Part shown: positions 3,319 to 23,852 of the stretch, one piece after another
How the letters are laid out: each line of letters opens with the position of its first letter
How positions within the stretch are numbered: the first letter of the stretch is position 1
DNA from: Vermiculatibacterium agrestimuris
GTDB taxonomy: Bacteria; Bacillota; Clostridia; Oscillospirales; Oscillospiraceae
DNA length: 32,000 bases
Direction of reading: 5' to 3'
NCBI RefSeq assembly: GCF_943193085.1
Contig: NZ_CALPCU010000023.1
Coordinates: forward strand, 2,442-34,441
Made by a program: the position numbers and the translations under genes
The notes under the pieces: generated by a model
What the model was told of the DNA's origin: nothing
The model's database searches: none
The model's input: the letters and a program-made list of their open reading frames with translations, nothing else

Positions 3319-3332
3319 CCATTTTAGAGCTT

Positions 3333-7945: not shown

Positions 7946-7960
7946 CGTCTTCACCTCCAC

Positions 7961-7989
7961 TTTACTTTTCAAAAGGAATCTTCTATAAT
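7961..7989 (+). promoter_or_regulatory. Candidate promoter for the kinase operon
   Basis: TTTACT, a 17-nt spacer, then a perfect TATAAT (7984-7989), in the divergent intergenic region. Confidence 0.4.
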
Positions 7990-8005
7990 AATTTACAGGA
8001 TTTTT

Positions 8006-8758
8006 ATGTGGAAAACAATATGCTGGCTGCATAGTAACGCAAATTTTGGGGTGATCCTTATTTACACCTGGTTGACAAATACGCTTCGGGAGGAATATGA
8101 AGAGGTTCGCCTTCTGAAGGAAAGCCCCCGGGGCAGCGTGCGCTCCATCCGCCATAAGGCCACCGGGCGGCAGTTTATCCTCCGGCGGTTCGCAGGGAAC
8201 CCGGAGGTCTATCAAAAGCTGCTGGAGGTCTCCTGCCCCAACCTGCCCACGGTGTACGAGGTGGCAGTGGGGGAGTCTGACAATCTGGTGCTGGAGGAGT
8301 TTATCCAGGGGGATACCCTGGGCTTTCTTCTGCAGGCTTCTCTCTTTACCCCGGAGGAGACCCGGCGGATCGTAAAGCAGCTCTGCGGGGGGCTGTGGGT
8401 GCTCCATTCCCTGGCCGCCGTCCACCGGGACATCAAGCCGGAAAACGTGATCCTCCGGGGCTCGGACGCCATCCTCATCGACTTCGACGCCGCCCGGCTC
8501 CACAAGGAGACCCATGATACCGACACCCAGATCCTGGGGACCACGGGCTTCGCCGCCCCGGAGCAATATGGCCTTTCCCAGTCCGACCTGCGGACTGATA
8601 TTTACTCCCTGGGTATCCTCATCAACGTGATGCTCACCGGGGAGCACCCCTCCAAAAAGCAGGCGGAGGGCAAGCTGGGCCGGGTGGTGGAGAGGTGTAC
8701 CCATGTGAACCCGGAAAAGCGGTATAAAAACGTGCTTCGGCTGATGGAGGAGCTTTGA
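8006..8758 (+). CDS. Small cytoplasmic Ser/Thr protein kinase-like protein (catalytic domain only)
   Basis: HRDIKPEN catalytic loop, DFD in place of DFG, and GTTGFAAPEQ (APE). The start is uncertain: ATG 8006 has a weak AGGA RBS, and in-frame TTG 8072 is an alternative. The stop is 1 nt before the next gene's ATG. Confidence 0.8.
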   Translation: MWKTICWLHSNANFGVILIYTWLTNTLREEYEEVRLLKESPRGSVRSIRHKATGRQFILRRFAGNPEVYQKLLEVSCPNLPTVYEVAVGESDNLVLEEFIQGDTLGFLLQASLFTPEETRRIVKQLCGGLWVLHSLAAVHRDIKPENVILRGSDAILIDFDAARLHKETHDTDTQILGTTGFAAPEQYGLSQSDLRTDIYSLGILINVMLTGEHPSKKQAEGKLGRVVERCTHVNPEKRYKNVLRLMEEL

Positions 8759-8759
8759 G

Positions 8760-10019: not shown

Positions 10020-10037
10020 GAGGGCAATAACAAAAAA

Positions 10038-10074
10038 GCACCCAGAAATCAAGGGATTTCTGGGTGCTTTTTTT
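10038..10074. terminator. Bidirectional intrinsic terminator
   Basis: A perfect 13-bp stem (GCACCCAGAAATC aagg GATTTCTGGGTGC) flanked by A6 and T7. It terminates the + strand operon and, on the minus strand, the tRNA. Confidence 0.85.
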
Positions 10075-10108
10075 GGAGCTGCTGGCCGGACTTGAACCGG
10101 CGACCTGC
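10074..10108 (-). tRNA. 3' fragment (positions 42-76 including CCA) of a disrupted tRNA-Thr(CGU) gene; left junction of the inserted element
   Basis: The reverse complement is GCAGGTCGCCGGTTCAAGTCCGGCCAGCAGCTCCA: T-arm plus 3' acceptor CAGCAGC plus CCA. It pairs with the 5' acceptor GCTGCTG found at 23761-23767. Confidence 0.85.
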
Positions 10109-10111
10109 GGT

Positions 10112-10124
10112 TGTCCGTAAGGGG
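10112..10124. repeat. Left terminal inverted repeat (attP-derived arm) TGTCCGTAAGGGG
   Basis: Perfect reverse complement of 23701-23713. It starts 3 nt inside the shared core. Confidence 0.8.
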
Positions 10125-10235
10125 GCAAACTGAGACGATGCCTAATGGCACGAATCTATCATCATGGGGTTAATGGTTTTTGATGGGCAGAGCTAAAATA
10201 AATATAAGATTCGTCCCCAATTGTACATTATGTGA

Positions 10236-10724
10236 TTAACACACTACAGAGTCGAAAATTTTAATGAGTTCTAAAACATCAAAGTAATAGTTTTTGATAT
10301 CTATGAACGTAGCTGTCGGAGCTTTTCCATGGGCAAAATCATGTCTATTCTGAACTAACGAATTAGAGGCATCAATAATCTTTTGCTTATTTGGGTGTTT
10401 GTTGACCGCACATTTGAAACTTTTTTGCCACTGCTCATCGAACTTGCCCAATAGGCCACACATCATCTCATACTTTGCACTCATAGAACCTTTTCTGACG
10501 GCTGTATCGAGATATGTATCAATTCGACTGTCTGATAATTTGGAAAAGTAATCAACAACAATCGAACGATACACAAACTCAGCCGTTCCAGAGGCTTTTA
10601 TAAGAGCATAGCAGGTGAGGTATCGTATTTGCTTGGACAAAGGAGGCATATCGGCAATAAGCGCATCAATATCATTGATTTCTGTAGTGCACTCGTCAAT
10701 TAAATCTTGCAATTCACTCTTCAT
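10236..10724 (-). CDS. HEPN-domain protein (RiboL-PSP / MAE_28990-like), predicted RNase effector
   Basis: ATG at 10724 preceded by GGAG, overlapping the upstream gene's end; the track's 10751 start is a GTG. An Rx4H HEPN motif lies near the C-terminus (LVQNRHDFAHG). The protein looks all-helical and the gene is AT-rich. Confidence 0.65.
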   Translation of the reverse strand: MKSELQDLIDECTTEINDIDALIADMPPLSKQIRYLTCYALIKASGTAEFVYRSIVVDYFSKLSDSRIDTYLDTAVRKGSMSAKYEMMCGLLGKFDEQWQKSFKCAVNKHPNKQKIIDASNSLVQNRHDFAHGKAPTATFIDIKNYYFDVLELIKIFDSVVC

Positions 10725-11841
10725 TGATGTCAACTCCAAAGAGAATTGCACCAGCCAACTGTATTCTTTTCCTTATGTTATCGATATCAGTTGTTCGTTT
10801 ACTAACTGCTTCCTTAAACTGTTCATTGCTCAATAGAGTTTGATGTTGCTCCAATGACACTGCGCTAATATCATGCCCTTTTTTGCTTATTAGAAAAGCT
10901 GACACCATGATTGCATCAAAGATAGCTGGATGAAATTTCTTGGAAAATCCATTTTTTGCGAGATTTCTAAAGGCCTTTTCTCCAACTGAACTGTTGACTG
11001 CTTCTACCGTGTGCAAAAACTCAGATCTAAATTTGCTTATATCCTCCGCAGTATCATTTCTGTGATTATCCATAAAGGAGTTCAGTGACTTTTTGAGAGA
11101 AATCTGTTTGGCATCACTCTTTAAGATGTCTTCTGTTTTCATTACAAAGAATCTGAGAATATACTCGAGATCTCGCATTCTGCTGTCTGGTACAACTGCT
11201 CCAAACAGTTTTCTCCATGTTGTGTTTTCGTTGAGTTCGAAAAGCAAGGAATTAAATGTTCCTTGATAGACGCAATTGCGAATTTCCTGAGGAGTGAGGC
11301 TGCGGCCGCTTGTATTAATGCGTTCAAAAATTTGATATAAACTCGTATCATCGTTTTCGGGTTTCTTCTGTTCAAAAACAATTGCATGGATTGTGGTACT
11401 CCGAATTTTTCGTTGGTCATCGGTAGACAATTCAACAAAGGATTTGTTGCGCCACCTTTGGTTTATTTTCTCAGAATTAGATAGTTTAAAAGCTTTTCCA
11501 TCTGCAGAAAAAACACCTCTCTTAACATAATCATAAACGGTCATGATCCTTTGATATCCGTCTACAATCAGCTTCTGACTTCCGGACTGGGCAAGAAAAA
11601 TACTTGGGACTGGAAGCCCCAGTAGGATTGACTCAATAAATCTGCTGGCCTCTGTTTTGTCCCATACATATTTGCGCTGCAGTTCGGGTTTCAGTAATTC
11701 ATCGTCTTCATACATTGAAATAAGCTCTCTAAAAGAAAGATCTGCGCCCCAAGATGAGATGTTAAACAGAGAATCATCTGAGTAATCATCTTCGATTTCG
11801 GACTTAATTTCTTCGATATTGGGATTTTCCTTTGCTTCCAT
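10714..11841 (-). CDS. DUF262 (ParB-like / GmrSD N-terminal-type) domain protein without a DUF1524 nuclease domain
   Basis: Motifs ..LQRKYVWDK..ASRFIESILLGLPVPSIFL...LIVDGYQRI (DGQQR variant) and ..FERINTSGRSLTPQEIRN... ATG 11841 has an AAGGAG RBS. The upstream in-frame extension to 12042 lacks an RBS. Confidence 0.75.
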   Translation of the reverse strand: MEAKENPNIEEIKSEIEDDYSDDSLFNISSWGADLSFRELISMYEDDELLKPELQRKYVWDKTEASRFIESILLGLPVPSIFLAQSGSQKLIVDGYQRIMTVYDYVKRGVFSADGKAFKLSNSEKINQRWRNKSFVELSTDDQRKIRSTTIHAIVFEQKKPENDDTSLYQIFERINTSGRSLTPQEIRNCVYQGTFNSLLFELNENTTWRKLFGAVVPDSRMRDLEYILRFFVMKTEDILKSDAKQISLKKSLNSFMDNHRNDTAEDISKFRSEFLHTVEAVNSSVGEKAFRNLAKNGFSKKFHPAIFDAIMVSAFLISKKGHDISAVSLEQHQTLLSNEQFKEAVSKRTTDIDNIRKRIQLAGAILFGVDINEE

Positions 11842-12214
11842 TGTTGAATATCTCCTTACAAAATCATCTGTTGAAAAGTGCTCTCCTTCAATTTGAATAA
11901 TCCTGGTTTCCTTCATGCCAATCCATTTAGGAATACAAACACAAATTATGGCAGTTTTTTTCCAAAGCAGAATTTCATATATATCTGTTGCCCTATCTTT
12001 GCGAATAGGTGTAATACCATGTACCAAGTATTTCATATGCAATATGCACCTCTCTTTGAGTCAGCATACGCATATAAGAGGCTGTTTATCCTCGCTGTTC
12101 CAAAACTATGAAGTACAAAAGTTTGTTTGCTTCGGTCTCTTTTTGAAATGACAAGCCGTAATAGCCACTTATGACCGGATTATCAAAATCGGCTCCATAA
12201 TGTTTTCATTACCG

Positions 12215-12550
12215 CTATAAGTTAATCGGTTCACTAATCTCGGACACAAATAAATCCATCAAATCATGATTGGCACCCACATTGGTGACTTCGAAATGGC
12301 TGACACAGTGCTGGAGCCAAGGGAAGGTATCGCTCATCTCCCGGATCAGATCAAAGATCTCCAGGTCGGTGGTCTTGTGCTTGGAATGATAGCCAGAATA
12401 CTGCTCGTGGGAGAAATCATGGGATGTCAGAAACCGCTGGATCAGGGCATAGGCTCCCTTGGGGTTGGTCTGGGAGTAATGCGTCTTCAAATCTTTGATG
12501 CGAAGGTCAAAATAAAGCGCCTTCAGGTGCTTTGCCTCACGCCGGGTCAT
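12215..12550 (-). CDS. vapD: VapD-like (Cas2-fold) endoribonuclease family protein
   Basis: 111 aa. Aligns by eye with H. influenzae VapD: ..YFDL.IKD...Y......AY..I...L....F...Q.S.Y.........W.....V....V....D... The start overlaps the upstream stop (TGATGA). Confidence 0.65.
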   Translation of the reverse strand: MTRREAKHLKALYFDLRIKDLKTHYSQTNPKGAYALIQRFLTSHDFSHEQYSGYHSKHKTTDLEIFDLIREMSDTFPWLQHCVSHFEVTNVGANHDLMDLFVSEISEPINL

Positions 12551-12885
12551 CAGGCTGCGCTCTCTCGGCCAGCGTAGTGAAGCAGTACATCCTCCACGGA
12601 AAAGTCATTTTCGTCCTCGCCGTCATCGCTGTTGTACCACAGCCACTTTGCCACATAGGGCATGAACCAATCCTTGTCTTTCAAAGTGGTGATAAGCCGT
12701 CCAAAGATGCCGTAGTCCTTGGCGGCGCCAGTGCCATAGTAGCAGACAGTGCCATCGGACTGGGTTTCCTTGCGGAAACCATATTTCCCAAAGGCGTTGT
12801 CCACAGAGGACTGAATCGTCTGGGGCGTATATTTTTGTGCTTGTTCAATGCGCTCAATGTCCAATTTCATTTCCAGTTTCAGCAT
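12550..12885 (-). CDS. Hypothetical 111-aa acidic-tailed protein, partner of the VapD-like gene (candidate antitoxin, VapX position)
   Basis: ATG 12885 with an AGGAGG RBS 8 nt upstream. Its stop overlaps the vapD-like start. I recognise no family. Confidence 0.6.
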   Translation of the reverse strand: MLKLEMKLDIERIEQAQKYTPQTIQSSVDNAFGKYGFRKETQSDGTVCYYGTGAAKDYGIFGRLITTLKDKDWFMPYVAKWLWYNSDDGEDENDFSVEDVLLHYAGRESAA

Positions 12886-12964
12886 ATCACAGCACCTCCT
12901 GAAAAGATTGACCACCCTTATTATATCAGGGTGGTCGAAATAGTGCAATCTTTTTCATGCTTTA

Positions 12965-14638
12965 TTAGGTAATAATCGCCATAGGCTTAGCATCATCTGA
13001 ACTTTCGGCAGGGGAGATGGCCCCATTCAGCATGACCGCCGGGTCGATGTACCCAATGAACTTATAGTAAATATCTACCTGCTGAGTGATGGCACCGTCA
13101 TCGCTGCGTTCCTTTTCGTGCACTACGATCTTTTCAATAAGCTCATTGAGGATGCGGGCGTTGAGTTCTTTGAGGTCGGTATATTGCCTGACCAGCGGGA
13201 GGAAAGCCTCCACATCGTCATAGATCTGTTCGCTGGCGGAGATGGCTTCCGCCAGCGTTTTTTGTGCTTCCAGAAGGGCAACCCGCTCCTGCTCGTAGCT
13301 GGGCATCATGGACTGATACCGCTCCTCGGTGATCTTTTCCAGCGCCCGGTCCTCATAGAGCTTATTGGAGACCTTCTCCAACTCGCCCAGGCGTTTCTCC
13401 ACTCGTTTGAGCTCCCTCCTTTGTCGCTCGGTGTTCTGCTGTTGCTGGGCTTGCTTGGCGGCCAGGAGCATCTGGGCGTAGTCCAGCTCCGCCACGGTTG
13501 CCCACTGGGCGTTGCGGCGGATATCCTCCAGCACCAGGGTGTTGAGCGTTTTCCAGCCGATGGCGTGGGAGGTGCAACGGCTTTTGCCGTAGTTTTTGTA
13601 GACCCAGCAGGAGAAGCCGGTGTAGCGGCCTCGTTTGCCGTCATAGCTAAGATTGAGGGAAGAGCCGCAGTCGGCGCACTTGACCAGCCCGGCGAAGGGC
13701 TGGACCTCATGGCTGCCGTTCTCCCGCCGTCGGGCTTTCATCATCTGGTGGACGGTGTCCCACAGCTCCTGGGTGACCAGGGGTTCATGGGTGTTCTCGG
13801 TGATGATCCATTCCTCCTCCGGGGCGGGGATGCGAGTCTTGTCAAAGAAACCTTTGAGTTTGGTGCGCCCGAACACGAGCTGCCCCAGGTAGACCCGGTT
13901 ATTGAGGATGGCCCGGATGGAGGTGGCGTGCCAATCATAGGGCTTACGCCAGTACTCGCTTTTGAAGTAGTCGGGGTTATTCTGGTTGAAGTATGCCTGG
14001 GGATTGAGGATGCCACGCTCCCGGAGAATCTTGGTCATCCGCACATAGCCCACGCCCTCGGCGAACATCTGGAAGATGTCCCGCACCACATCGGCGGCGG
14101 GTGGGTCTACGATGAGGTGATGCCGGTCGGCGGGGTCTTTGACATAGCCGAAGGGGGCGTGGCTGCCCAGATACATTCCGGCCTTGGCTCTGGCCCGATG
14201 GGCGGCCTTGGTCTTACTGGAAGCCTGCCGGGCATAGAAGGAGTTGATCACATTGGTAAAGGGGAGCACCAGGCTGTCCAGGCCCTTTTGGGAGTCGATG
14301 TTCTCCGCCAGAGAGAGGAACCGGATGCCCTTTTCCTCAAAGTAGTGCTCGATGTACATCCCCATCTCGGCGTACTCTCGACCGAACCGGGAGAGGTCTT
14401 TGACGATAACCGTGTTGATGCGCCCAGTCTCGATGTCGTCGATCATCCGCTTGAAGTCAGGCCGCTCGAAGTTGGTGCCGCTCCAGCCATCGTCACAGTA
14501 GTACCCACCGATGGTGATGTGCTGTTCCTCACAGTATTGGGTGAGGATGGCCTTTTGGGTCTGGATGCTCCCGGATTCCCCAACGCTGCCGTCGTCCTGA
14601 CTGAGCCGACAGTAGATGGCGGCAATTTCTTTGCTCAT
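12965..14638 (-). CDS. Large serine recombinase (TnpX/TndX-like, with a DUF4368-like C-terminus)
   Basis: ATG 14638 with an AGGAGG RBS. N-terminal resolvase catalytic domain (AAIYCRLSQDD...), recombinase domain, Cys cluster (CADCGSSL...FSCWVYKNYGKSRCTSH), a coiled coil, and a C-terminal ..ELNARILNELIEKIVVHE.. motif. Confidence 0.9.
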   Translation of the reverse strand: MSKEIAAIYCRLSQDDGSVGESGSIQTQKAILTQYCEEQHITIGGYYCDDGWSGTNFERPDFKRMIDDIETGRINTVIVKDLSRFGREYAEMGMYIEHYFEEKGIRFLSLAENIDSQKGLDSLVLPFTNVINSFYARQASSKTKAAHRARAKAGMYLGSHAPFGYVKDPADRHHLIVDPPAADVVRDIFQMFAEGVGYVRMTKILRERGILNPQAYFNQNNPDYFKSEYWRKPYDWHATSIRAILNNRVYLGQLVFGRTKLKGFFDKTRIPAPEEEWIITENTHEPLVTQELWDTVHQMMKARRRENGSHEVQPFAGLVKCADCGSSLNLSYDGKRGRYTGFSCWVYKNYGKSRCTSHAIGWKTLNTLVLEDIRRNAQWATVAELDYAQMLLAAKQAQQQQNTERQRRELKRVEKRLGELEKVSNKLYEDRALEKITEERYQSMMPSYEQERVALLEAQKTLAEAISASEQIYDDVEAFLPLVRQYTDLKELNARILNELIEKIVVHEKERSDDGAITQQVDIYYKFIGYIDPAVMLNGAISPAESSDDAKPMAIIT

Positions 14639-14670
14639 GCTTGATTCCTCCTTAGCCACAGACAATACCC

Positions 14671-14874
14671 CTAATCCTTGCCCAAAGCTATACCAGAACC
14701 CACCAAAGAATCCTTCGTAACTTTGGGCGGAATAGACGAGGTGAGGGAAGCGGTGATGAGGTCGCCCATCTTCTGAAACACATCCCTGCTGCCGCCGTAG
14801 TAGCTGGTGGTGATATACCGAACGCCGCGGATGGTCTGGCTGTGGGCGATCATGCTGTCCTCGAATAGAAACAT
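14671..14874 (-). CDS. Hypothetical 67-aa protein immediately upstream of the recombinase
   Basis: AGGAGG RBS 9 nt upstream of the ATG. GC3-rich codons. It ends 33 nt before the recombinase start. Confidence 0.5.
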   Translation of the reverse strand: MFLFEDSMIAHSQTIRGVRYITTSYYGGSRDVFQKMGDLITASLTSSIPPKVTKDSLVGSGIALGKD

Positions 14875-14889
14875 CGGCTGGTACCTCCT

Positions 14890-15003
14890 TTACATTTTCT
14901 GCTGCCAGGTTTGCTGTTCTTCGTGGTCATCTGCCTTGTGGCCCATAGAAATTTTCTTCTTCCGCTCTTGGGAGAGGGCCTTGCGGTCGTCGTAGCCAGT
15001 CAT
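14890..15003 (-). CDS. Possible 37-aa basic/acidic peptide, or the genuine C-terminal tail of the relaxase (same frame)
   Basis: ATG at 15003 overlaps the TGA of the nested ORF. GC3 bias returns to this frame (MTGYDDRKALSQERKKKISMGHKADDHEEQQTWQQKM). Confidence 0.3.
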   Translation of the reverse strand: MTGYDDRKALSQERKKKISMGHKADDHEEQQTWQQKM

Positions 15004-16170
15004 GGATGCGGCTGGAGCAAGGCGCTGGCTACGCTCCAGAGCATGGCCCAGAGCGGCCACAGAGCGTACAATCCCACCAGGATCGGGATGGCCCACAGCC
15101 ATGCCAGACTGGGTGTGGGCAGGTGTAGCTTCGGCAGAGAAGGCCGCCAGCCTTTCTTCCTCCCAGCCTGTTCCTGTCGCTCCAGCAGCTGATGGATCGT
15201 TGCCGCTTCCTTGGTCAGCGCCTCCGCCTGGGCATGCACTGCCTGCATGGTAGCGAGGCTGTTCTTCAATATGTCGGACTGGCTCGCCGTCAGACGGTAC
15301 AGGGTGCTGAGGATCGCCAACAGGTCGTTCCATTCCTCCCCCATAGGATGTCGCTCTGGCGGCAAGTTCCTCTCCTTCAATTCTTCGATGGAGCATTTCT
15401 GCTCGGATCCTAAACTCACGCTCCATGACCTCCTTTCGGTATTTGTCCTCGTGGAGACGGTTATCCCGGCACTTCTTCCCTTTGGGAGTAGTATAGGTGA
15501 TGGCCTGCCGGGTGGGTTCCCACCGCACCTGGTAGCCCCGCTGTTCCATCTCCCGGATGAAGTCCTCCCGGCGTTTAGCCCTCCTCATACACAGGTCGAT
15601 GGTGTTCATGAGCTGGAATTTCCAACTCTCACCCCGGACCGCCGAGCGGTACTCACCGGGGCGCATCTTCTTATCCTGGACGTGCCTTTTGGGTGACTCC
15701 AGTACTTGCAGACCGTGGGTGCGACATATCTGGTCGCTGATCTGGCGCTGCCGTTGGAGGTCCGCGGCGTTTTGGTGCAGCTTGCGGCCATCCTTCCAGC
15801 TGACGCTGTTGACGATGAGGTGGTTGTGGAGGTGGTCTGCGTCCACATGGGTGGCCACCACCACTTCAAACTCCGGGAACAGCCGTTGGGCCAACTCCAG
15901 CCCGATGGTGTGGACTTCTTCTGGGGTGACGTCTTCCGCTGGAGAGAAGGACTGGACGAACTGATAGAACATCCTGCCATCGGATTTCTGGAACCGCCGC
16001 TTGGTGGTCATCATCTCATCGTAGGCAGACTGGGCAACGCAGTTGTGACCAGTCACCAGTCGGTGGTCTTTCCATGCGGTTTTCTTCTCCTGCGCCGCAT
16101 AGGCCAGCACCCGATGTAGCGAGCTACCGCTTTGAGCCTTGTTTTTGATCGCGGTGAAGGTTGCCATCAT
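14890..16170 (-). CDS. Relaxase/mobilization nuclease (MobA/VirD2 family); the relaxase domain is the first ~290 aa and the C-terminal ~140 codons have a non-coding-like signature
   Basis: 3-His motif HVDADHLHNHLIVNSV and an N-terminal Tyr region. AGGAGG RBS, with an ATGA overlap onto the mobC stop. Downstream of about 15420 the GC3 bias moves to another frame (see the nested ORF). Confidence 0.85.
   Translation of the reverse strand: MMATFTAIKNKAQSGSSLHRVLAYAAQEKKTAWKDHRLVTGHNCVAQSAYDEMMTTKRRFQKSDGRMFYQFVQSFSPAEDVTPEEVHTIGLELAQRLFPEFEVVVATHVDADHLHNHLIVNSVSWKDGRKLHQNAADLQRQRQISDQICRTHGLQVLESPKRHVQDKKMRPGEYRSAVRGESWKFQLMNTIDLCMRRAKRREDFIREMEQRGYQVRWEPTRQAITYTTPKGKKCRDNRLHEDKYRKEVMEREFRIRAEMLHRRIEGEELAARATSYGGGMERPVGDPQHPVPSDGEPVRHIEEQPRYHAGSACPGGGADQGSGNDPSAAGATGTGWEEERLAAFSAEATPAHTQSGMAVGHPDPGGIVRSVAALGHALERSQRLAPAASMTGYDDRKALSQERKKKISMGHKADDHEEQQTWQQKM
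15000..15419 (-). CDS. Nested out-of-frame gene inside the relaxase ORF: 139-aa coiled-coil protein with a C-terminal Trp-rich TM helix (MobB-like position)
   Basis: GTG start with AAGGAGG 9 nt upstream. In sampled stretches GC3 is about 17 of 20 codons in this frame versus about 9 of 20 in the relaxase frame. The sequence is protein-like (..EEWNDLLAILSTLYRLTASQSDILKNSLATMQAVHAQAEAL.., LAWLWAIPILVGLYALWPLWAMLW). Its stop overlaps the next ATG (ATGA). Confidence 0.6.
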   Translation of the reverse strand: MSLGSEQKCSIEELKERNLPPERHPMGEEWNDLLAILSTLYRLTASQSDILKNSLATMQAVHAQAEALTKEAATIHQLLERQEQAGRKKGWRPSLPKLHLPTPSLAWLWAIPILVGLYALWPLWAMLWSVASALLQPHP

Positions 16171-16487
16171 CGCACCTCCTTGGAAAGTTGGCTGATCTGC
16201 TGGTAGAGCTTGGCATAGCCATCCACCAGGTCATCACCTCGGAGGATTTTCAACTTGCCCATGTTGGCCAGAGTGGTGAGCTGGTTTAGGTTCCGCCCCT
16301 GAGCCTTCAACTCGCTCAGCACAGCATCCAGGCCATCCACCCGGACGATCTCTTTGCCCAACGCACAGACGGTCATGTAGTCGGTGACCGTCATCCCGGC
16401 ACCCCGGGCCAGGTGTTGGACGAGACTTTTCATGGTGGGCGTCATTCGGATGGTGACGATCTCGGTCTTGCGTTTTTCTCTGCGCAT
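16167..16487 (-). CDS. mobC: MobC-family relaxosome accessory protein
   Basis: ATG 16487 after GGGGGAGAAAGGA. RHH-like N-terminus (..IVTIRMTPTMKSLVQHLA..) and a MobC motif (..LKAQGRNLNQLTTLAN..). The stop overlaps the relaxase start. Confidence 0.8.
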   Translation of the reverse strand: MRREKRKTEIVTIRMTPTMKSLVQHLARGAGMTVTDYMTVCALGKEIVRVDGLDAVLSELKAQGRNLNQLTTLANMGKLKILRGDDLVDGYAKLYQQISQLSKEVR

Positions 16488-16561
16488 GTTTTTCCTTTCT
16501 CCCCCTCTGGGGGCTGGGGCACGGGGCAGCGCCCCGACCGCATCCGGCGTATAGCCGGGGG

Positions 16562-17619
16562 CTATGCTTGCCTCACCCAAGGGTGAGCGTCCGCATCCCT
16601 GACTTGAGTCCCAGGGGCGATAGGGTCAACGGTTCCGGGGGCTTGTTCAGCGTCACTTTCGGCACGGTGGAGCTCGATGAGCCGCTTGCCGTTACTCCTG
16701 CGGACGATGGCGGTGATGCCTTGTTCCGTAAGTGCCGCAGCGCTTTGGAGGATCTTCCGGGAGACGGTCTTGGGCGTGACGCCCTCCGCACCGTCAGGGT
16801 CGATACGCTTGGCCAACTCGGTGGGAGTGCCGATCCAGCTTGCTTTATTCCGCAGAAATTCAGAGAGGAGAAACACGACCCGCTCCTCCAGAAGCAGTGG
16901 CTGAGTGTAGGAGTCCGATACCAGCTCCCATACGTTTTCGGCGTTCCGCTCCAGCCCCATCTCCCGGTACTCAATGTCCCGGCCTACACAGTAGAGGGTG
17001 GCTCTGCGGCTGCCCCGCCGATCCTCCACCAGCGTGAAGCTGGAATCCACCGCGCCGCTGATGGCGGTGGTGCCGGAGATGCGGCTGAACACATCCTCGG
17101 CGGGTTCCTTGCGTAGATGATGGATGAGCAGGACGGCGATGCCGTGAGCGTCGGCCAGCCGCTTGAGGACAGAGAGGTCTCGGTAGTCATTGGCATAGAG
17201 TTGGTTCCCCGGATCATCTGGAGGGTGTCGATGATGACCAGGACGGTGTCCGGGTGTTCTGCAAGGAAGGCTTTGAGTTGCTGTTCCAGTCCACGGCCCA
17301 GCAGAGCGGCCTCGGTGGAGAAGTGAACGGTGGGCGGCGCGTCCTCGGTAATGTCCAGCAGCCGGTTTTGGATACGGAGCTGGGAGTCCTCCAGACAGAG
17401 ATAGAGGGTAGTGCCCTGCTTCGCTGGCCTGCCCCAGACGCTTTCGCCTTTGGCGACCTGTACGCTGAGCCACAGGGCCAGCCAGGACTTGCCCACCTTG
17501 GGCGACCCGGCCAGGATGTGGAGTCCCTGGGAGAGCAGCGTGTCCACGATAAAGGGCAGCGGCACGAAGGGCTTGGCCATCAGTGTGACGCCGTCAATGG
17601 TGTTGAGCTTTTGATTCAA
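16562..17619 (-). pseudogene. RepA-like AAA (AAA_25-type) ATPase with a C-terminal winged-helix-like region, interrupted by a 1-nt frameshift
   Basis: TTG 17619 with an AGGAGG RBS 7 nt upstream. Walker A is GSPKVGKS. The N-terminal part (frame of ORF 16984..17763) and the C-terminal part (frame of ORF 16562..17473) join at the G4 run (plus-strand CCCC, 17207-17210). One extra G gives ..IIDTLQMIRGNQLYANDYRDL... Total length is 1058 nt, that is 3n+2. Confidence 0.75.
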
Positions 17620-17643
17620 GAGAAAACCTCCTTTGCGATGTGG

Positions 17644-17672
17644 TTGGCATTGGCCTCTGCCTGTGTTAGAAT
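17644..17672 (+). promoter_or_regulatory. Strong sigma-70-type promoter for the + strand operon of the element
   Basis: TTGGCA, a 17-nt spacer, then TGtTAGAAT (extended -10). It lies about 85 nt upstream of the 17757 ATG. Confidence 0.5.
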
Positions 17673-17756
17673 ACAGAGGAGGAATGCTTTTTGAAATCTG
17701 AAAGTGATGTTGGCGATTTTTCAAAAGTTCGCTTGCAGACAAAAAGGAGGGACGAT

Positions 17757-18767
17757 ATGGCATCGGAATATGGGCTGTATCTTTCTCTGCTCCCGGATGG
17801 GCAGATAAAAAGAGACCTCACCGGGTCGGCCGGCAAGGTCCCCTTGGAGGATACAACGATCCAGGATGAGTTGATTTTATTTTCTGAGTTGAACTTTGAG
17901 CCGTATGCTCTGGTGGTAGACCTGGTCCGCAATTGTGCGGGGAGCATTATGGTGCAGGATGAAGGTCATTATGGAGAGGTCGACATGAAGGAGTTTCAGT
18001 TCATGGCGGACACCGTGATCGACCTGGTGACCACCATGGAGAAAGAGTCTCCTCTGTATGGCACGCTGCTTCGCACCCAGATCGAAGATCAGATCACGAC
18101 GGACGATGGAACTGCCATGTATCCGATTCGCACCGGGCAGGAGCTGGTTGCTCTGTTGACCGGAGTGATGCAGTTTCAGTTCGTGGTCAATGAGGTGCTG
18201 CATGACCTTTGCGAGAAGACACCGCTTGAACCAAAGAAGTACGAGGGCCTGTGGGAGATGCCGGTGACGGAGGTCTTAACACTGGAGGGGGATGGTTTGA
18301 CTACACGATACCATTTCCGTTCGGCGGTGGACTACTACCATTTTCTTCTTCTGCATTTTGTGGCGGACAAGCCAAATGTGTCTCTGTGCCAGTGCTGCGG
18401 CAGATATTTTATTCCCAAGACGAAAAAGAAAACGCTGTACTGTGACCGTATTCTGAAGGATGGCAAGACTTGTAAGGAGTGGGGGCCGATCCTGAAGCAC
18501 AAGCTGGCTGCTCGGAGGAACGAGGTCATCGAGGCTTTTGACCGGGCCAAGCGGAAAATGTACAAGCGCTACGAGCGGGCGGCAAATAAGATCAACCAGA
18601 AGCCCTCGGAGAAGGATCTGAGCTACGCTGAATACTATGAGTGGCTGGACAGGGCAACCAAGGCGAGAGATGATTATTTGGAGGGGAAAATCACAGTGGA
18701 AGACTGTTTGCGACAAATTGGGGAAGAAAAAGATGAAGATGGAAACTTTATCGAACTTATGGTATAA
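17757..18767 (+). CDS. Hypothetical 336-aa protein with a Cys cluster (CQCCGRYF...YCDR...TCKEW) and a basic helical C-terminus
   Basis: AAAAGGAGGG RBS 6 nt upstream of the ATG. Composition (about 55% GC in a sampled line) resembles the element core. It is divergent from the ATPase/mob operon. Confidence 0.7.
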   Translation: MASEYGLYLSLLPDGQIKRDLTGSAGKVPLEDTTIQDELILFSELNFEPYALVVDLVRNCAGSIMVQDEGHYGEVDMKEFQFMADTVIDLVTTMEKESPLYGTLLRTQIEDQITTDDGTAMYPIRTGQELVALLTGVMQFQFVVNEVLHDLCEKTPLEPKKYEGLWEMPVTEVLTLEGDGLTTRYHFRSAVDYYHFLLLHFVADKPNVSLCQCCGRYFIPKTKKKTLYCDRILKDGKTCKEWGPILKHKLAARRNEVIEAFDRAKRKMYKRYERAANKINQKPSEKDLSYAEYYEWLDRATKARDDYLEGKITVEDCLRQIGEEKDEDGNFIELMV

Positions 18768-18856
18768 TAGCTTGGCAAGTAGAATTACAAAATATGAACC
18801 TGCACCATTGATGCGGAGGGTCAAATCTTTGCAATGAAAAATTGGGGGACGAGTTG

Positions 18857-21800
18857 ATGGATAACAAAAAATTGGATCGTTGGGCTGAACTGCTTTTAGA
18901 TACGGGTAAGCGCAACAATCTGATCAACTTTAGAGATACAAAGGCATCCACTGTTGAAGTTGTTGCTCCGGCCCCTGATACCATATGGGAGAAGGCCAAT
19001 GGTTCTGGGGACTTGGAGGTCTATGATCCTGGCCTCATTACCTTTGACGATGAGGACGAACAGCGTTCTCCTGAAGACGGCGAAAGAGAGACAAAACTAA
19101 GCCGTGAAGATTATCTTCAAACCTACAGCCCTATGTTGAAAAAAGCAAGCCAAATGTTGCTATACAGCCTTGGACCAAGCCCCATTCGCACTTTACAGAA
19201 TATTGACAAGAAGGCTCAATCTGCTATTGAGGAAACTGGCGTTAATGTCGCATATATGGCATTTGGCTTTATTCACTGGAAGGAGAGCAATTCTTCTCAA
19301 TATGAATATAGGGCACCTATTCTTTTGGCGCCGGTTCAATTTAGCAGGGAAACTGCCATTGCACCCTACCATATTGTTGTATCTTCCGATGAAATAGCAG
19401 TAAACCCCACATTCTCCTATAGGATGAACGCTGAACACGGGATTCGCCTTCCAGAGTATGAGGACGAGGGCCTTGACAGCTATTTGGATAAGGTTGCAGA
19501 GCTGGTCGGAAAATTGGGCTGGGCTGTGACGAGAGAGTGTAAAATCGGGCTGTTTTCCTTCCTGAAAATGAATATGTATCGCGATCTGAAGGATCATGCA
19601 GCTGCCATCTTGAAGAATAGAAATATTAGGACCTTGCTTGGCGAGCAGGTTGAGCGTGACAACGCCGAAAGTAGTTTTGATGAAGAAGCACTGGACTATG
19701 GAGGTGCCTTGATCCAACTTCATAGTGTCGTCGATGCGGACTCCAGCCAAATCGAGGCCATCGAGATGGCGAAATCTGGAGTGAGCTTTGTCTTGCAGGG
19801 CCCTCCGGGGACTGGAAAAAGCCAAACTATCACAAATATTATTGCTGAGTGCTTGAACGACGGGAAGAAGGTTTTGTTCGTTTCTGAAAAGCAGGCTGCT
19901 TTAACTGTTGTGTATGACAAGCTGAGGCAGGCTGGCTTGAATGATTTCTGCCTGGAACTTCATAGTTATAAGGCAAATCGGAAAGGCGTAATTGCCGAGC
20001 TGTGCCGTACATTACGCCTGGACAAAACAACCGTTTCAACCAAGGCAGATGAAGAAGTTACGACCAAAGAGAAGGCACAAAGGCAACTTGACCTTTATGC
20101 CGAGGAGCTACATAAGCAAAGACCGGGAATCGAAAGAAGCCTTTATCAGCTCTATGAGGAACACTCCGCCTGTCGACATGTCCCGGAACTCGAATTTCAG
20201 GTTCCTGCGATTGAGGACAAGGGTGCAAACTATTTAACTTCGGCGATTGAATTTTTGGAGCAGTATGTAGATTATCTCCCTTCAGTGGGCTATGACTACC
20301 ACAAAAACCCGTGGTATGGATATAAGAACCAAGATACCTCCTACCAAACCACAATTCAAGTTAAGAGTGATTTGCAGGAATCGATAAAGTTTTTTCAAAC
20401 TCTCATTTTGCTTTCTGACGAACTGGCCACCAAGTATGGTGTAGCATTGGAAGGGATTGACAGCGCACGATATTGGCGAGATTTCTTGTCATTTGTAGTG
20501 ACCTCAGATATCATTACACCTGCATTCTTGAAAGACCCCAATCTGGTAGATGCCCTGCGCAGGATGGCGGCCTTAAGTGCAGAGATCCACGAGATCCAAA
20601 CGAGTCTTGATGCTGTATATGGTCAGGACATTTACCAAATTGATGGAGCGGAATACTGTAAAAAGCTCACAACACAGTTTGGTAGTTTCTTTTCTCGCCT
20701 ATTCAATCAGGAATATCGGCAGACAGTTGCGAATCTCCAGGTTTGCAAGCGGAGCGATGGCAAACTGTCATATCAGGATGCCGTAGCCCTTACCCGGAAA
20801 CTTTCGGAATATCAGGAAAAGACCCAAGCGTTTGAAGCACTTGAGGTCTCGGCCAAGGGAGGCCTGGGACCGGGATATACCGGCCTTCAGGGAGACTGGG
20901 CGCACGTTGAAGAGCAACTTGACCAGATGGGGGCCATCATAAATGGAAAGCACGACTATGGTCGGTTGGCAGAGCTTTCTCTGTCGGAATTTCAGGCCGA
21001 ACAGCCGACTTTTGAAAATCTTGCGAAGAGGCTTTCTGCTTGCCTTGATCTGTTTGGCGACTGGTATGATCGGCTTGCGGCAGCGTTTGATAACGAGATT
21101 TTTGATTTGCGTACTGTCCAGGATCAAGAGGCTCTTGCCAAGCTCGAAGCCTGTCACTGCGATGCCGATAAAATTGATAACTGGTGTAGATTCCGCACGT
21201 TGTTGGCTCAACTGCGAGATGTTGGATTGCTGTCCTTTGTTGACTATGTGATCTCGCAAAATTATGAGGCGAAGAATATGGTCACCGCATATAAGCGAGC
21301 ATTTTTGCATCAATGGATCGACTGCATTATTGCCACTACACCTGCCTTGGCTGATTTCAATCGGGTGATTCAGGACAGAGCTGTGGTTACATTCTCACAA
21401 AAAGACACTACGCAGTTCGACATTAGCAAAGCACAAATCCGCCAGAAGCTCTCAGCCCAAAGACCGTCTCTTGATATGGTTTCATCTGGTAGTGCTGTTT
21501 CTATTTTGCTCCGTGAGGGAGAGAAGAAAAGACGGCAAAAGAATATCCGTACCTTGCTGGCGGAGACCGGGGAGCTTATCCAGATCATAAAGCCTTGCTT
21601 TATGATGTCGCCATTGAGCGTCAGTACGTTTCTGGATCCAGATATCATACATTTTGATACAGTGATTTTTGACGAGGCGTCGCAGATATTCCCCCAGGAT
21701 GCGGTGGGCGCTATATATCGCGCTAAACAGCTCATCGTGGTGGGCGATTCCAAGCAAATGCCGCCCAGCAACTTTTTCTCTGCAACTGTGGAGGATGACT

Positions 21801-23473
21801 CACCAGATGAAGAGATTGGCGATGTGACGGATTTTGAATCCATCCTTGATATGTGCTCCACCACTATGCCGCAAATGCGCTTGCGGTGGCATTATCGTAG
21901 CCGGTATGAGCAGCTGATTGCTTTCTCTAACCGCAATTTTTATGACGGGGATTTGGTTACATTTCCCTCCGCAACAGCAGATACACATGGCGTGGGTGTA
22001 GACTATTACCATGTGGATGGAATATTTGACCGCAAAAGTCATACAAACCGAAAGGAAGCAGAATTTGTTGTTGATCTCATTTTTAAGCATATTCAAGAGT
22101 ATCCGGGCAGAAGCCTTGGCGTAGTGGCGTTCAGCGTAGCACAGCAGGAACTGATCGATAACCTCCTGTCAAAGCGACGTCAAGAAAATCCGGATATGGA
22201 GGGCTTTTTCAAAGGAGAGCGCAAGGAACCATTTTTTATCAAAAACCTTGAAACGGTGCAGGGCGATGAACGGGATACTATCATATTCAGCGTTGCATAT
22301 GGCATTGACTCTCAAGGGCGCCTGCTCCATAATTTTGGCCCTCTGAATCGGGTCGGCGGTGAACGCCGACTGAATGTTGCGGTCACCCGAGCAAAGTGCA
22401 ATGTGCAGTTGGTATCCTCCATGCATTATACGGACATTGACCTGAGCCGTACATCGTCAACTGGAGTTACATTGTTGCGGGCGTATCTGGACTATGCCGA
22501 GAATGGCACTATTGCCTTGGAGCGAGCGGTCTCAATCAGCCCTTTTGAACAATTTGATTCCGAGTTTGAAATGGAAGTTTGCGATTTCCTGCGGGACAAT
22601 GGATTTGAAGTAGATATGCAGGTCGGTTGTTCTGGATTCCGCATAGATCTTGGTTTACGTCGGTCAGGAAGTTCGGATTATGTCTTGGCGATTGAATGTG
22701 ATGGAGCTACCTATCATTCATCAAAAAATGCCCGTGATCGGGATCGCCTCCGTCAAGAGATCTTGGAGCGTATGGGCTGGAAATTTTACCGCATTTGGTC
22801 CACGGACTGGTTCAAAAACAAGAGAGTGGAAAAGGAGCGCTTGTTGGGGGCGGCAAAACAGGCGGTAAAGGCTCCCACCTCAGTAGTCCAGCCTATGCTG
22901 GATATAGAAGAATCCGCCGCTGAGATTTTTGAGACCGTATCAACTGCCAATGATTTTAAGTTTCAACAATACAAAATAGCCGATATCCCCGCTCTATCCA
23001 AACGGTATTTACCAAATAACTTTAAGGGTATGGTGAAGGCCATTTTGGAAATAGAGGCCCCTCTTTCAGAGGATCTGCTTTTAAAGCGCACGGTTATATA
23101 CTTTGGCCGAGAGAAAGTGACGAGCGTTGTTCAACGGACCTACGAGCAACTAATGCAAGGGTGTCGTCGGGATGGGATCATTCGTCGGGATGGCTTTTTA
23201 TATCTGGAGGGGCAGAGTGAGTGCCCGTTCCGAACACCTTCTAACGATTTGAAGCGTGACATCAAAGATATCTGCTTGGAGGAGTTAGCTTCTGGGCTGC
23301 TCGAACTGCTTCGTCAAAATGTAACGGCAGATAAGACTGGGCTCTATCACGCCTTTGCGGGGCAGTGCGGTTGCAGTCGGGTTGGCAAAGCTATTAATGA
23401 GCGGTTTGACGATGCACTTGGACTGTTAAAGGACAAAATAAATGTGGACGGAATTATGCTTTCGATTAAATAG
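18857..23473 (+). CDS. DUF4011 / SF1 (Upf1/DNA2-like) helicase / Vsr-MTES_1575-like endonuclease / DUF3320 giant protein (Hhe-like candidate defence gene)
   Basis: 1538 aa. N-terminal DUF4011-like region (..LLDTGKRNNLINF..). Walker A GPPGTGKSQTI and motif II VIFDEASQ. Also WHYRSR, VQGDERD and RLNVAVTRAK. A C-terminal nuclease-like block follows (..GFRIDLGL...YVLAIECDGATYHSSKNARDRDRLRQEILERMGWKFYRIWSTDW..), then a DUF3320-like tail. A sampled line gives about 42% GC. Confidence 0.85.
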   Translation: MDNKKLDRWAELLLDTGKRNNLINFRDTKASTVEVVAPAPDTIWEKANGSGDLEVYDPGLITFDDEDEQRSPEDGERETKLSREDYLQTYSPMLKKASQMLLYSLGPSPIRTLQNIDKKAQSAIEETGVNVAYMAFGFIHWKESNSSQYEYRAPILLAPVQFSRETAIAPYHIVVSSDEIAVNPTFSYRMNAEHGIRLPEYEDEGLDSYLDKVAELVGKLGWAVTRECKIGLFSFLKMNMYRDLKDHAAAILKNRNIRTLLGEQVERDNAESSFDEEALDYGGALIQLHSVVDADSSQIEAIEMAKSGVSFVLQGPPGTGKSQTITNIIAECLNDGKKVLFVSEKQAALTVVYDKLRQAGLNDFCLELHSYKANRKGVIAELCRTLRLDKTTVSTKADEEVTTKEKAQRQLDLYAEELHKQRPGIERSLYQLYEEHSACRHVPELEFQVPAIEDKGANYLTSAIEFLEQYVDYLPSVGYDYHKNPWYGYKNQDTSYQTTIQVKSDLQESIKFFQTLILLSDELATKYGVALEGIDSARYWRDFLSFVVTSDIITPAFLKDPNLVDALRRMAALSAEIHEIQTSLDAVYGQDIYQIDGAEYCKKLTTQFGSFFSRLFNQEYRQTVANLQVCKRSDGKLSYQDAVALTRKLSEYQEKTQAFEALEVSAKGGLGPGYTGLQGDWAHVEEQLDQMGAIINGKHDYGRLAELSLSEFQAEQPTFENLAKRLSACLDLFGDWYDRLAAAFDNEIFDLRTVQDQEALAKLEACHCDADKIDNWCRFRTLLAQLRDVGLLSFVDYVISQNYEAKNMVTAYKRAFLHQWIDCIIATTPALADFNRVIQDRAVVTFSQKDTTQFDISKAQIRQKLSAQRPSLDMVSSGSAVSILLREGEKKRRQKNIRTLLAETGELIQIIKPCFMMSPLSVSTFLDPDIIHFDTVIFDEASQIFPQDAVGAIYRAKQLIVVGDSKQMPPSNFFSATVEDDSPDEEIGDVTDFESILDMCSTTMPQMRLRWHYRSRYEQLIAFSNRNFYDGDLVTFPSATADTHGVGVDYYHVDGIFDRKSHTNRKEAEFVVDLIFKHIQEYPGRSLGVVAFSVAQQELIDNLLSKRRQENPDMEGFFKGERKEPFFIKNLETVQGDERDTIIFSVAYGIDSQGRLLHNFGPLNRVGGERRLNVAVTRAKCNVQLVSSMHYTDIDLSRTSSTGVTLLRAYLDYAENGTIALERAVSISPFEQFDSEFEMEVCDFLRDNGFEVDMQVGCSGFRIDLGLRRSGSSDYVLAIECDGATYHSSKNARDRDRLRQEILERMGWKFYRIWSTDWFKNKRVEKERLLGAAKQAVKAPTSVVQPMLDIEESAAEIFETVSTANDFKFQQYKIADIPALSKRYLPNNFKGMVKAILEIEAPLSEDLLLKRTVIYFGREKVTSVVQRTYEQLMQGCRRDGIIRRDGFLYLEGQSECPFRTPSNDLKRDIKDICLEELASGLLELLRQNVTADKTGLYHAFAGQCGCSRVGKAINERFDDALGLLKDKINVDGIMLSIK

Positions 23474-23542
23474 AAAATTGTAAAATCCCTTTTTCTCCTT
23501 GGGGAGAATATGATTTACCATCGTTGAGTTTTCCAAAACAAA

Positions 23543-23589
23543 GCATTCCCGCTTTTCGAGGATATGAAAAGCGGGAATGCTCTATTTTT
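23543..23589 (+). terminator. Intrinsic terminator after the helicase gene
   Basis: A 14-bp stem (GCATTCCCGCTTTT ... AAAAGCGGGAATGC) followed by tctaTTTTT. Confidence 0.8.
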
Positions 23590-23664
23590 GGAGCTACTGG
23601 CCGGACTTGAACCGGCGACCTGCTGATTACGAATCAGCTGCTCTACCAACTGAGCCACAGTAGC
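23589..23664 (-). tRNA. Complete tRNA-Thr (anticodon CGU), element-borne
   Basis: The reverse complement is GCTACTG TG GCTC AGTTGGTA GAGC A GCTGA TTCGTAA TCAGC AGGTC GCCGG TTCAAGT CCGGC CAGTAGC T CCA. This is a 76-nt perfect cloverleaf with an encoded CCA. Confidence 0.9.
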
Positions 23665-23700
23665 GTATAAAATTGTTGAATTTGCGGAGTGGAGGAATGT

Positions 23701-23713
23701 CCCCTTACGGACA
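23701..23713. repeat. Right terminal inverted repeat (attP-derived arm) CCCCTTACGGACA
   Basis: Perfect reverse complement of 10112-10124. It ends 6 nt inside the shared core. Confidence 0.8.
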
Positions 23714-23719
23714 GCCACT

Positions 23720-23767
23720 GACCTGCTGATTACGAATCAGCTGCTCTACCAACTGAGCCACAGCAGC
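23720..23767 (-). tRNA. 5' fragment (positions 1-48) of the disrupted host tRNA-Thr(CGU) gene; right junction
   Basis: The reverse complement is GCTGCTGTGGCTCAGTTGGTAGAGCAGCTGATTCGTAATCAGCAGGTC. It is identical to the element tRNA except position 4, and it then breaks off into element sequence. Confidence 0.85.
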
Positions 23768-23823
23768 ATATGAAATTATTTCGCCTTAAACGGAGCTGCT
23801 CTACAGCTGCTTTGCAACTCAGA

Positions 23824-23852
23824 AGTCTATCATATTTTGAAGCCCCCGTCAA
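23824..23852 (-). promoter_or_regulatory. Candidate host promoter of the (split) tRNA-Thr gene
   Basis: Minus strand reads TTGACG, a 17-nt spacer, then TAGACT, about 55 nt upstream of tRNA position 1. Confidence 0.3.

Follow-up and report, generated by a model that had tools for sequence, protein, structure and literature searches.

A serine-recombinase element that splits a tRNA-Thr(CGU) gene in Clostridia and very probably carries its replacement

The DNA analysed here, hereafter termed the window, is a 32,000-nt stretch of Vermiculatibacterium agrestimuris (contig NZ_CALPCU010000023.1, positions 2,442 to 34,441 of the forward strand), in which a tRNA-Thr(CGU) gene is split into two halves by an insertion. 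The insertion is read as an integrative mobilizable element (IME) that was integrated by its own large serine recombinase (LSR) into the middle of the tRNA gene, maintains the function of this gene by a complete spare tRNA-Thr(CGU) and is mobilized by helper elements. The probability of this reading is put at about 0.8. The sites that matter for it are, in window coordinates and in the direction of the host tRNA gene:

23824..23852, minus strand: promoter-like site of the host tRNA gene, TTGACG-17-TAGACT with TG before the -10 box (extended -10), upstream of the split 5' half
23720..23767, minus strand: 5' fragment with positions 1-48 of the host tRNA-Thr(CGU), forming the B arm of attL (repeat D1) and reading GCTGCTGTGGCTCAGTTGGTAGAGCAGCTGATTCGTAATCAGCAGGTC; core GGTC at 23723-23720, putative crossover GT at 23722-23721
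23698..23719, no strand assigned: left element end, forming the P' arm of attP, reading AGTGGCTGTCCGTAAGGGGACA and repeated in inverted form at the right end (I3, 19 nt, 89%)
23589..23664, minus strand: intact element-borne tRNA-Thr(CGU), called by ARAGORN and scoring 73.4 bits with Rfam RF00005 against a gathering score of 29
23535..23588, no strand assigned: strong hairpin straight after the spare tRNA, a likely terminator (I1)
12965..14638, minus strand: large serine recombinase of 557 aa with Resolvase, Recombinase, Zn-ribbon and DUF4368 domains
10109..10127, no strand assigned: right element end, forming the P arm of attP and reading TGCCCCCTTACGGACAACC on the minus strand (I3)
10074..10108, minus strand: 3' fragment with positions 42-76 of the host tRNA-Thr(CGU), forming the B' arm of attR (repeat D2) and reading GCAGGTCGCCGGTTCAAGTCCGGCCAGCAGCTCCA; core GGTC at 10105-10102, putative crossover GT at 10104-10103
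10032..10073, no strand assigned: terminator hairpin of the host tRNA gene (I2), identical in the empty site

The two halves lie where the first-pass annotation had placed them. Re-reading of the sequence confirmed tRNA positions 1-48 on the minus strand at 23767-23720 and positions 42-76 on the minus strand at 10108-10074. Joined in silico, they yield a 76-mer, which ARAGORN identifies as tRNA-Thr(CGU) with a perfect cloverleaf. The 5' fragment alone reaches 39.3 bits with RF00005 and is above the gathering score of 29. The G+C content drops from 0.60 outside the halves to 0.38-0.47 between them and recovers beyond. That everything between the halves has been inserted, as the annotation had claimed, is demonstrated by a syntenic empty site. 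The absence of an intact tRNA from this locus in related genomes had been named beforehand as the outcome that would speak against the insertion. Such a tRNA was found at the locus in at least nine contigs of the same species (L060-L068, n = 9), which originate from Logan assemblies and an ENA/NCBI assembly and have flanks 99.0-99.7% identical to those of the window. These contigs were found via the DUF624 protein that adjoins the 5' half upstream and is 100% identical to P0122. Each of them has a single intact tRNA-Thr(CGU) after the DUF624 gene, and in eight of nine the 419-aa gene of the window comes next; the remaining one, L064, stops just past the tRNA. The promoter-like site at 23824..23852 is identical in L061, and the L061 tRNA agrees with the in-silico joined sequence in every base. 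In blastn alignments, L061 1-5758 matches the window up to 23720 (99.7% identity) and L061 5752-7423 matches it from 10108 (99.0% identity), the two segments overlapping by 7 nt. Based on this alignment, the insertion comprises window positions 10109-23719, that is, 13,611 bp or, with one repeat copy, 13,618 bp. In the empty site, a lone tRNA lies in a 233-nt intergenic space. A tandem pair of host tRNA genes is ruled out, since only one tRNA is present there. The site is polymorphic within the species of the window: Both occupied and empty versions were seen. A pattern search for the exact 91-nt empty site in JGI metagenome contigs gave 0 matches with a pattern whose A-run is one base longer than in the real sites.

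The break is located in the variable loop, away from the tRNA 3' end, as had been stated. A 19-nt terminal inverted repeat is present immediately inside both junctions. The 7-nt core that the first-pass annotation described is valid only in part: The halves of the window do overlap by GCAGGTC, but this overlap is allele-specific, and L075, L078 and most relatives share only GGTC. Two right-arm alleles can be distinguished next to the crossover, ACAACC-GCAG-GTC in the window and in L074, L076, L077 and L079 versus ACAACC-AGCG-GTC. The AGCG allele occurs in L075 and L078, copies with 99.8% identity, in a sibling element (L044 5230-5250) and in most of the family. The attR sites of L075 and L078 read ACAACCAGCGGTC, which amounts to three changes within 4 nt (window 10102-10114, minus strand); the GCAG allele copies the tRNA. 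Family-wide, the element ends and the tRNA have GGTC alone in common. These data also bear on the alternative of a DDE transposon that is bounded by terminal inverted repeats and has duplicated 7 bp of its target (GCAGGTC); such an element would likewise leave a 19-nt terminal inverted repeat just inside a 7-nt direct repeat. This alternative is refuted. No transposase is encoded, and the 'duplication' is reduced to GGTC in near-identical copies and in relatives. In addition, the empty site has one copy of the sequence, as a part of the tRNA, and the same target nucleotide is used in more than 20 species.

The LSR encoded at 12965-14638, which had been proposed as the agent, is supported in this role by relatives in 43 genomes with like junctions and by an attP palindrome of the serine-integrase style. 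Its catalytic domain (PF00239, E = 1.8e-29) spans residues 15-164 and contains the motif AAIYCRLSQDD. It is complemented by a Recombinase domain (PF07508, E = 1.7e-23), a zinc ribbon (PF13408, E = 9e-11) and, at residues 475-541, DUF4368 (PF14287, E = 8e-23). The closest solved structure is the TnpX catalytic domain (2mhc, E = 1.6e-27), and identity to TndX amounts to about 35%. Among named models, NCBIfam CcrB scores best with 148 bits against a cut-off of 900, followed by XisF with 128.7 bits against a cut-off of 375. No protein with more than 40% identity to the LSR was found in plasmid and phage collections.

The reconstructed attP is TGCCCCCTTACGGACAACCGCAGGTCAGTGGCTGTCCGTAAGGGGACA, divided as CCTTAC-GG-ACAACC-GCA-GGTC-AGT-GGCTGT-CCG-TAAGG. 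It forms the palindrome ACAACCAGC-GGTC-GCTGGTTGT with outer CCTTA/TAAGG boxes and a dyad centre on the GT of GGTC. The attP sites could be reconstructed for six elements; they are imperfect palindromes with very short identity to attB, as expected for the attP of a serine integrase, which measures about 50 bp. Using 35 P and P' half-sites, the element half-site consensus, read outward from the centre, was determined as C-G-c-T-G-G-T-T-G-T-n-n-n-T-A-A-G-G. On the host side, attB corresponds approximately to tRNA positions 28-64, from the anticodon loop to the T-loop, and is about 40 bp long. Read outward, the B half-site is the anticodon arm CTGnTGATTACGAATCAG with the anticodon at +10 to +12, and the B' half-site is the T arm CgnnGGTTCgAgTC. 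The crossover would take place at G46-T47 in the variable loop. GGTT at +5 to +8 is common to the P half-sites and B'. A short outer motif reads TAAG at +14 to +17 of P and P'; its counterpart in B and B', TACG or C(G/A)AG, occupies +9 to +12. In LI integrase, the zinc-ribbon motif is shifted 5 bp inward in attB compared to attP (PMC3783163). The 5-bp inward shift in the present half-sites would be compatible with this model.

The same target is used across a whole family. In a scan with one genome per species, 43 loci were found whose LSR is 62-92% identical to that of the window; the hosts are Oscillospiraceae, Lachnospiraceae and other Clostridia. The right junction, CTTA-n3-ACAACC-nnn-GGTC fused to the 3' part of tRNA-Thr, is visible in 23 of these 43 loci (24 with the window). 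The left junction, the 5' part of tRNA-Thr(CGU) followed by GGTC-nnn-GGTTGT-nnn-TAAGG, is visible in 10 of 43 (11 with the window). All 24 right and 11 left junctions fall on one position of tRNA-Thr(CGU) or its remnant, in more than 20 species. Six elements with both ends visible measure 10.9-17.2 kb, and in five of these six in-silico excision yields a perfect tRNA-Thr(CGU). The excised tRNAs have matching acceptors, namely GCTGGAT/ATCCAGC, GCTGGAA/TTCCAGC, GCTGGCA/TGCCAGC, GCTGGTG/CACCAGC and GCTGCTG/CAGCAGC. The backbone genes for AAA_25, relaxase and recombinase are common across the family. Within 10 kb on either side of the recombinase genes of L011, L023, L035 and L041 (Oscillibacter valericigenes genome), neither a tRNA-Thr fragment nor an end motif was detected. 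Their recombinases are 71-75% identical to that of the window, and these loci may represent larger elements or use a different target.

The first-pass annotation concluded that the host gene is destroyed. This is not supported as it stands: The gene is physically split, yet a complete tRNA-Thr(CGU), which the annotation did not mention, is carried by the element. Encoded on the minus strand at 23664-23589, it is the only complete tRNA that ARAGORN reports in the window. Its distance from the left end of the insert is 55 nt, and it is oriented like the host gene; the order from the left junction along the minus strand is P' arm, spare tRNA, protein-coding genes and finally P arm. The spare differs from the host tRNA only at positions 4 and 69, where a compensatory A-U pair takes the place of G-C. 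Since GCTGCTG and CAGCAGC pair and the spare differs at 4:69, the two fragments belong together and the spare is a separate third gene. Because the empty site holds a single tRNA, it is element cargo and not a second host gene. Repeat comparisons yielded 61 nt with 93% identity between the host 5' half and the spare, reaching 13 nt upstream of the mature 5' end, and 42 nt between the host 3' half and the spare. In the 13-nt extension, minus-strand positions 23665-23677 read AATAATTTCATAT and positions 23768-23780 read AACAATTTTATAC.

An intact tRNA combined with a distant 42-nt 3' repeat is also the search signature of Islander for tRNA islands generated by tyrosine integrases (PMC4383910). 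On that explanation, the regenerated target would lie at 23664-23589 and its displaced 3' fragment at 10108-10074, and the 5' half would be a remnant that has nothing to do with them. The explanation is refuted by the course of the host DNA, which runs through the 5' half to 23720, and by the location of the intact tRNA inside the insert. In addition, the 3' fragment has an acceptor strand that is complementary to the 5' half and not to the intact copy, and the insert encodes no tyrosine recombinase.

The spare tRNA is a constant part of the family. At all 11 visible left junctions (10 relatives and the window), an intact tRNA-Thr(CGU) is located 33-95 nt inside the element in the same orientation. 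Across the family, 15 intact copies of tRNA-Thr(CGU) were detected upstream of the LSR gene; they retain the cloverleaf, and 99.3% of the cells scored are paired. Over these copies, both sides have changed in 12 of 21 pairs, a covariation count that is partly selected for because ARAGORN reports good cloverleaves only. In L005 and L022, the element tRNA is identical to the host gene. The acceptor of the window's spare tRNA matches that of the host gene in a sister strain. This suggests capture from, or gene conversion with, related hosts. The common 13-nt extension hints at a chromosomal tRNA-Thr locus as the origin of the spare, which would have been captured along with its leader. In L037 (Anaerotignum lactatifermentans DSM 14214; 356-510 and 17614-17670), in-silico excision yields no tRNA: The 3' half is degenerate, whereas the element copy 33 nt inside the element is intact. 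In the Lachnospirales/Anaerotignum-type loci L030 (4029-4182), L031 (3656-3810), L033 (2684-2838) and L037, about 20 nt of the 5' half are recognisable, from the anticodon loop to GGTC. The degenerate halves of L037-type loci may be either old fixed insertions or pseudo-attB sites.

Taken as sequence evidence, these properties argue that the function of the split tRNA-Thr(CGU) is very probably replaced by the spare and not lost. Alternatively, the spare could be a passenger from an earlier host or an internal attB that acts as landing pad or excision regulator, and the host would tolerate the loss because tRNA-Thr(UGU) can read ACG. The spare tRNA indeed contains a perfect attB, 82-144 bp from attP in the circular form. 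The repeat of host gene and spare, whose 13-nt extension past the mature 5' end suggests chromosomal capture, would agree with this explanation. The same applies to the use of one chromosomal site by different family members and to the statement of a review that IMEs with serine recombinases usually disrupt dispensable genes (PMC5704250). A relic would, however, be expected to decay, yet the copies at all 11 left junctions are intact, consistently placed and oriented, and show compensatory changes. Decay is seen in L037 for the host halves but not for the element copy. A further counterargument is that tandem arrays were seen in none of the 43 loci. The passenger or internal attB, the main competing explanation, is on balance considered unlikely.

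The integration of the element and the replacement of the split tRNA gene might proceed as follows. The LSR would recombine the palindromic attP with attB in the host tRNA-Thr(CGU), crossing over at G46-T47. Serine integrases exchange strands at 2 bp and require element-specific arms on both sides. Because its own arms are needed on both sides of the 2-bp core, attP is unable to hold a tRNA fragment that rebuilds the gene. Instead of a rebuilt target, a whole tRNA-Thr(CGU) gene would be brought along. After integration, about 160 nt would separate the spare tRNA from the intact host tRNA promoter upstream of it, and a transcript would run from this promoter through the dead 5' half and the attL arm into the spare tRNA and end at the terminator of the latter. 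RNase P would free the spare tRNA from the leader, and the spare would replace the split gene. In a simple consensus scan over short spacers, which limits the weight of these counts, 7 of 11 loci showed a sigma-70-like promoter site ahead of the host 5' half, and none of the 11 showed one in the element-side spacer. In the window, the site at 23824..23852 is the only promoter-like one ahead of the spare tRNA. No terminator is predicted in the window between the host promoter and the spare tRNA. The spare tRNA is probably transcribed from the host promoter. The exact crossover dinucleotide as well as expression and use of the spare tRNA are what we infer from these data.

The remaining genes of the insertion are:

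18842..23473, plus strand: cargo protein of 1543 aa with DUF4011, SF1 helicase and MTES_1575 nuclease domains (PADLOC PDC-S37, Hhe-like); other callers start at 18857
17691..18767, plus strand: DUF6076 protein (domain match)
16562..17763, minus strand: AAA_25 (RepA/DnaB-like) backbone gene (domain match)
16167..16580, minus strand: NikA/MobC-like relaxase accessory protein (domain match)
14890..16170, minus strand: MobA/VirD2-type relaxase (PF03432, E = 1.1e-37)
12550-12948, minus strand: 132-aa protein of unknown family
12215-12550, minus strand: VapD family protein
10236..12042, minus strand: cargo gene pair, GmrSD_N (NsnA/PD-T4-2_A-like) and RiboL-PSP HEPN, G+C 38%

By its content, an LSR, a relaxase and a NikA-like protein without a conjugation pore, the insert is classified as an integrative mobilizable element. 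Domain searches detected neither a tyrosine recombinase nor a DDE transposase nor type IV secretion genes (VirB4, T4CP and others) among the insert proteins. Among the remaining insert open reading frames (ORFs), those that are 100 aa or longer and match a family encode defence proteins, AAA_25, VapD and DUF6076. The backbone has a G+C content of 57-60%; the defence cargo is low in G+C and located at both ends. Exact-protein look-ups gave no match for the 419-aa flank protein, the LSR, the 1538-aa version of the helicase (ATG start) or a spurious attR-spanning ORF. Relaxase and NikA/MobC would permit transfer via a helper conjugative system, and the low-G+C defence genes at both ends would be the cargo transported. 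In the host flank, at window positions 7520-10019, a conserved trio encodes an HTH protein, a Ser/Thr kinase and the 419-aa zinc-ribbon/beta-helix protein; it is also found in L044, L052 and L059. The downstream neighbour of the trio varies: It is tRNA-Thr here, glgB at 81% identity and an AraC-like gene at 88%. Relatives of the 419-aa gene with 81-88% identity were also considered as empty sites and rejected, since no tRNA is located beside the gene.

The element of the window is also present in a second host. Six independent contigs contain up to 5.4 kb of its right part with 95.5-99.9% nucleotide identity. There, the junction comprises a tRNA-Thr 3' half with the acceptor CACCAGC, another terminator and other neighbours (ABC transporter). 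The occurrence of one element in two host backgrounds suggests transfer, presumably by a helper element. The sister strain, with 92-95% identity to the window in the flanks, has a sibling element with a related recombinase at the site that the window's element occupies. Between its right end and the recombinase gene, the sibling carries AbiH, DUF1016/YhcG and a reverse transcriptase (L044-L051; L044 5147-10202). The interval from right end to recombinase looks like a hotspot for defence cargo. The coexistence of occupied and empty sites within the species and the presence of the element in two hosts speak indirectly for integration and excision by the LSR. Excision and mobilization would still take place today. 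Element-specific attL and attR patterns gave 0 matches in IMG/VR. On the 100-kb contig L074 of the second host, tandem recombinase genes are present at 212-3348 that encode a 532-aa LSR without DUF4368 and a 466-aa LSR with DUF4368. The latter has a faint catalytic-domain match, and a rearranged or composite variant is seen here. All three Logan contigs with an identical helicase-nuclease gene (L082-L084) end about 141 nt past this gene, inside the element tRNA and thus short of the left junction in the second host. As short-read assemblies break at the triple tRNA repeat, such elements will often be fragmented or missed.

An assembly chimera has also to be weighed, in which an element of the second host was threaded into the empty tRNA gene of the present host through the common tRNA sequence. 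Identical elements in independent contigs adjoin the flank of the second host only, empty-site contigs of the present host are common, and assemblies visibly break at this repeat. However, two mis-joins would be needed via stretches of 41 and 26 nt, which are below the final k of current assemblers. Moreover, many independent contigs of the sister strain have the sibling element in exactly this site, and the G+C boundaries and junctions in the window are exact. We regard a chimera as highly improbable.

Several points weigh against an LSR-integrated, helper-mobilized IME whose spare tRNA keeps the host function; the cloverleaf selection in the covariation count and the simple promoter scan mentioned above are two of them. 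The spare could be dispensable if the host had a further tRNA-Thr(CGU) gene elsewhere or if its tRNA-Thr(UGU) took over by wobble. No recombination directionality factor was identified in the element. In the window copy, the AAA_25 gene is interrupted near 17200 and continues in a second, overlapping frame, whereas about 28 relatives have it in one frame; this frameshift may reflect either a partly disabled element or a sequencing error. A degenerate attP pattern, designed for the excised form, gave 0 matches in IMG/VR and in JGI metagenome contigs. Finally, all six independent right junctions of the window's element (6/6) are in the second host, and the pairing of this element with the flank of the window is without an independent contig.

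A more general strategy can be proposed tentatively and with considerable doubt: An LSR element might colonise an important tRNA gene by using its spare as a promoter trap behind attL. If this is true, long residence would lead to decay of the host halves, as perhaps in L030, L031, L033 and L037. The sole tRNA-Thr(CGU) would then be element-borne, and the left end would be held by selection. In addition, a spare that is a perfect attB would turn the resident element into a portable landing pad, that is, a self-renewing hotspot for defence cargo.

According to the textbook rule, tRNA genes are targets of tyrosine integrases and are rebuilt from an attP fragment, whereas serine integrases use protein genes or dispensable sites. 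An LSR clade that is present in at least 43 species-level Clostridia genomes and hits one tRNA in mid-gene is an exception to this rule. The repair problem appears to be solved in another way, by a complete spare gene that seems to borrow the host promoter. For genome annotation this means that tools which look for a tRNA and one displaced fragment draw wrong island boundaries here. Furthermore, many gut Firmicutes already possess a conserved natural attB of about 40 bp for these enzymes, which is attractive for DNA insertion in anaerobes that are hard to engineer. In the ecology of the gut, the elements bring in varied anti-phage cargo via one chromosomal hotspot, comprising PDC-S37, the PD-T4-2-like pair, AbiH and a reverse transcriptase.

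Among known systems, Tn4451/Tn4453 (TnpX) and Tn5397 (TndX) are likewise Clostridia elements moved by a DUF4368-bearing LSR, and Tn4451 is an integrative mobilizable element like that of the window. DUF4368 marks the 'multi-targeting' clade and is found in 0.73% of site-specific LSRs (bioRxiv 10.1101/2021.11.05.467528). The LSR of the window falls into this TnpX/TndX-like branch. TnpX and TndX enzymes have low target specificity, whereas the LSR clade described here strictly uses one nucleotide position of tRNA-Thr(CGU) and has a tRNA gene aboard.

Islands of tyrosine integrases (Islander; P4-like elements, integrative and conjugative elements, IMEs) resemble the present family in the tRNA target, the kept function and the tRNA fragments that mark the ends. 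They differ in that a tRNA fragment in attP rebuilds the gene and one fragment is displaced; here, a serine recombinase is at work, both halves are displaced and a whole gene is supplied. According to a review on IMEs, those with serine recombinases insert into dispensable genes and disrupt them, and the 3' ends of tRNA genes serve tyrosine integrases as targets (PMC5704250). Similarly, in a survey of Mycobacterium prophages, the attB sites reported to overlap tRNA or tmRNA genes were all associated with tyrosine integrases. An incomplete search of the literature gave no account of an element with a serine recombinase that interrupts a tRNA gene and brings a complete substitute, and large island databases may list such loci unremarked. 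The one exception found to the division between the two integrase types is the Paracoccus phage vB_PamS_Pami6, which encodes a serine recombinase and for which integration into tRNA-Met has been predicted (PMC6536676). This is a single case of an alphaproteobacterial prophage, and the available part of that report mentions neither a split in mid-gene nor a whole spare tRNA.

Two further groups of LSR elements interact with genes of the host. The Ccr recombinases of SCCmec insert the cassette site-specifically into the housekeeping gene rlmH (orfX) without abolishing the gene. SCC elements spare their target by insertion at the extreme 3' end, whereas here the target is cut in mid-gene and a replacement is supplied. 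The skin element with SpoIVCA in sigK and the fdxN element with XisF, examples of 'regulated gene integrity', are likewise LSR elements located in mid-gene whose precise excision restores the gene. Their target gene is non-functional until programmed excision, and these elements are not mobilizable and are devoid of a replacement copy.

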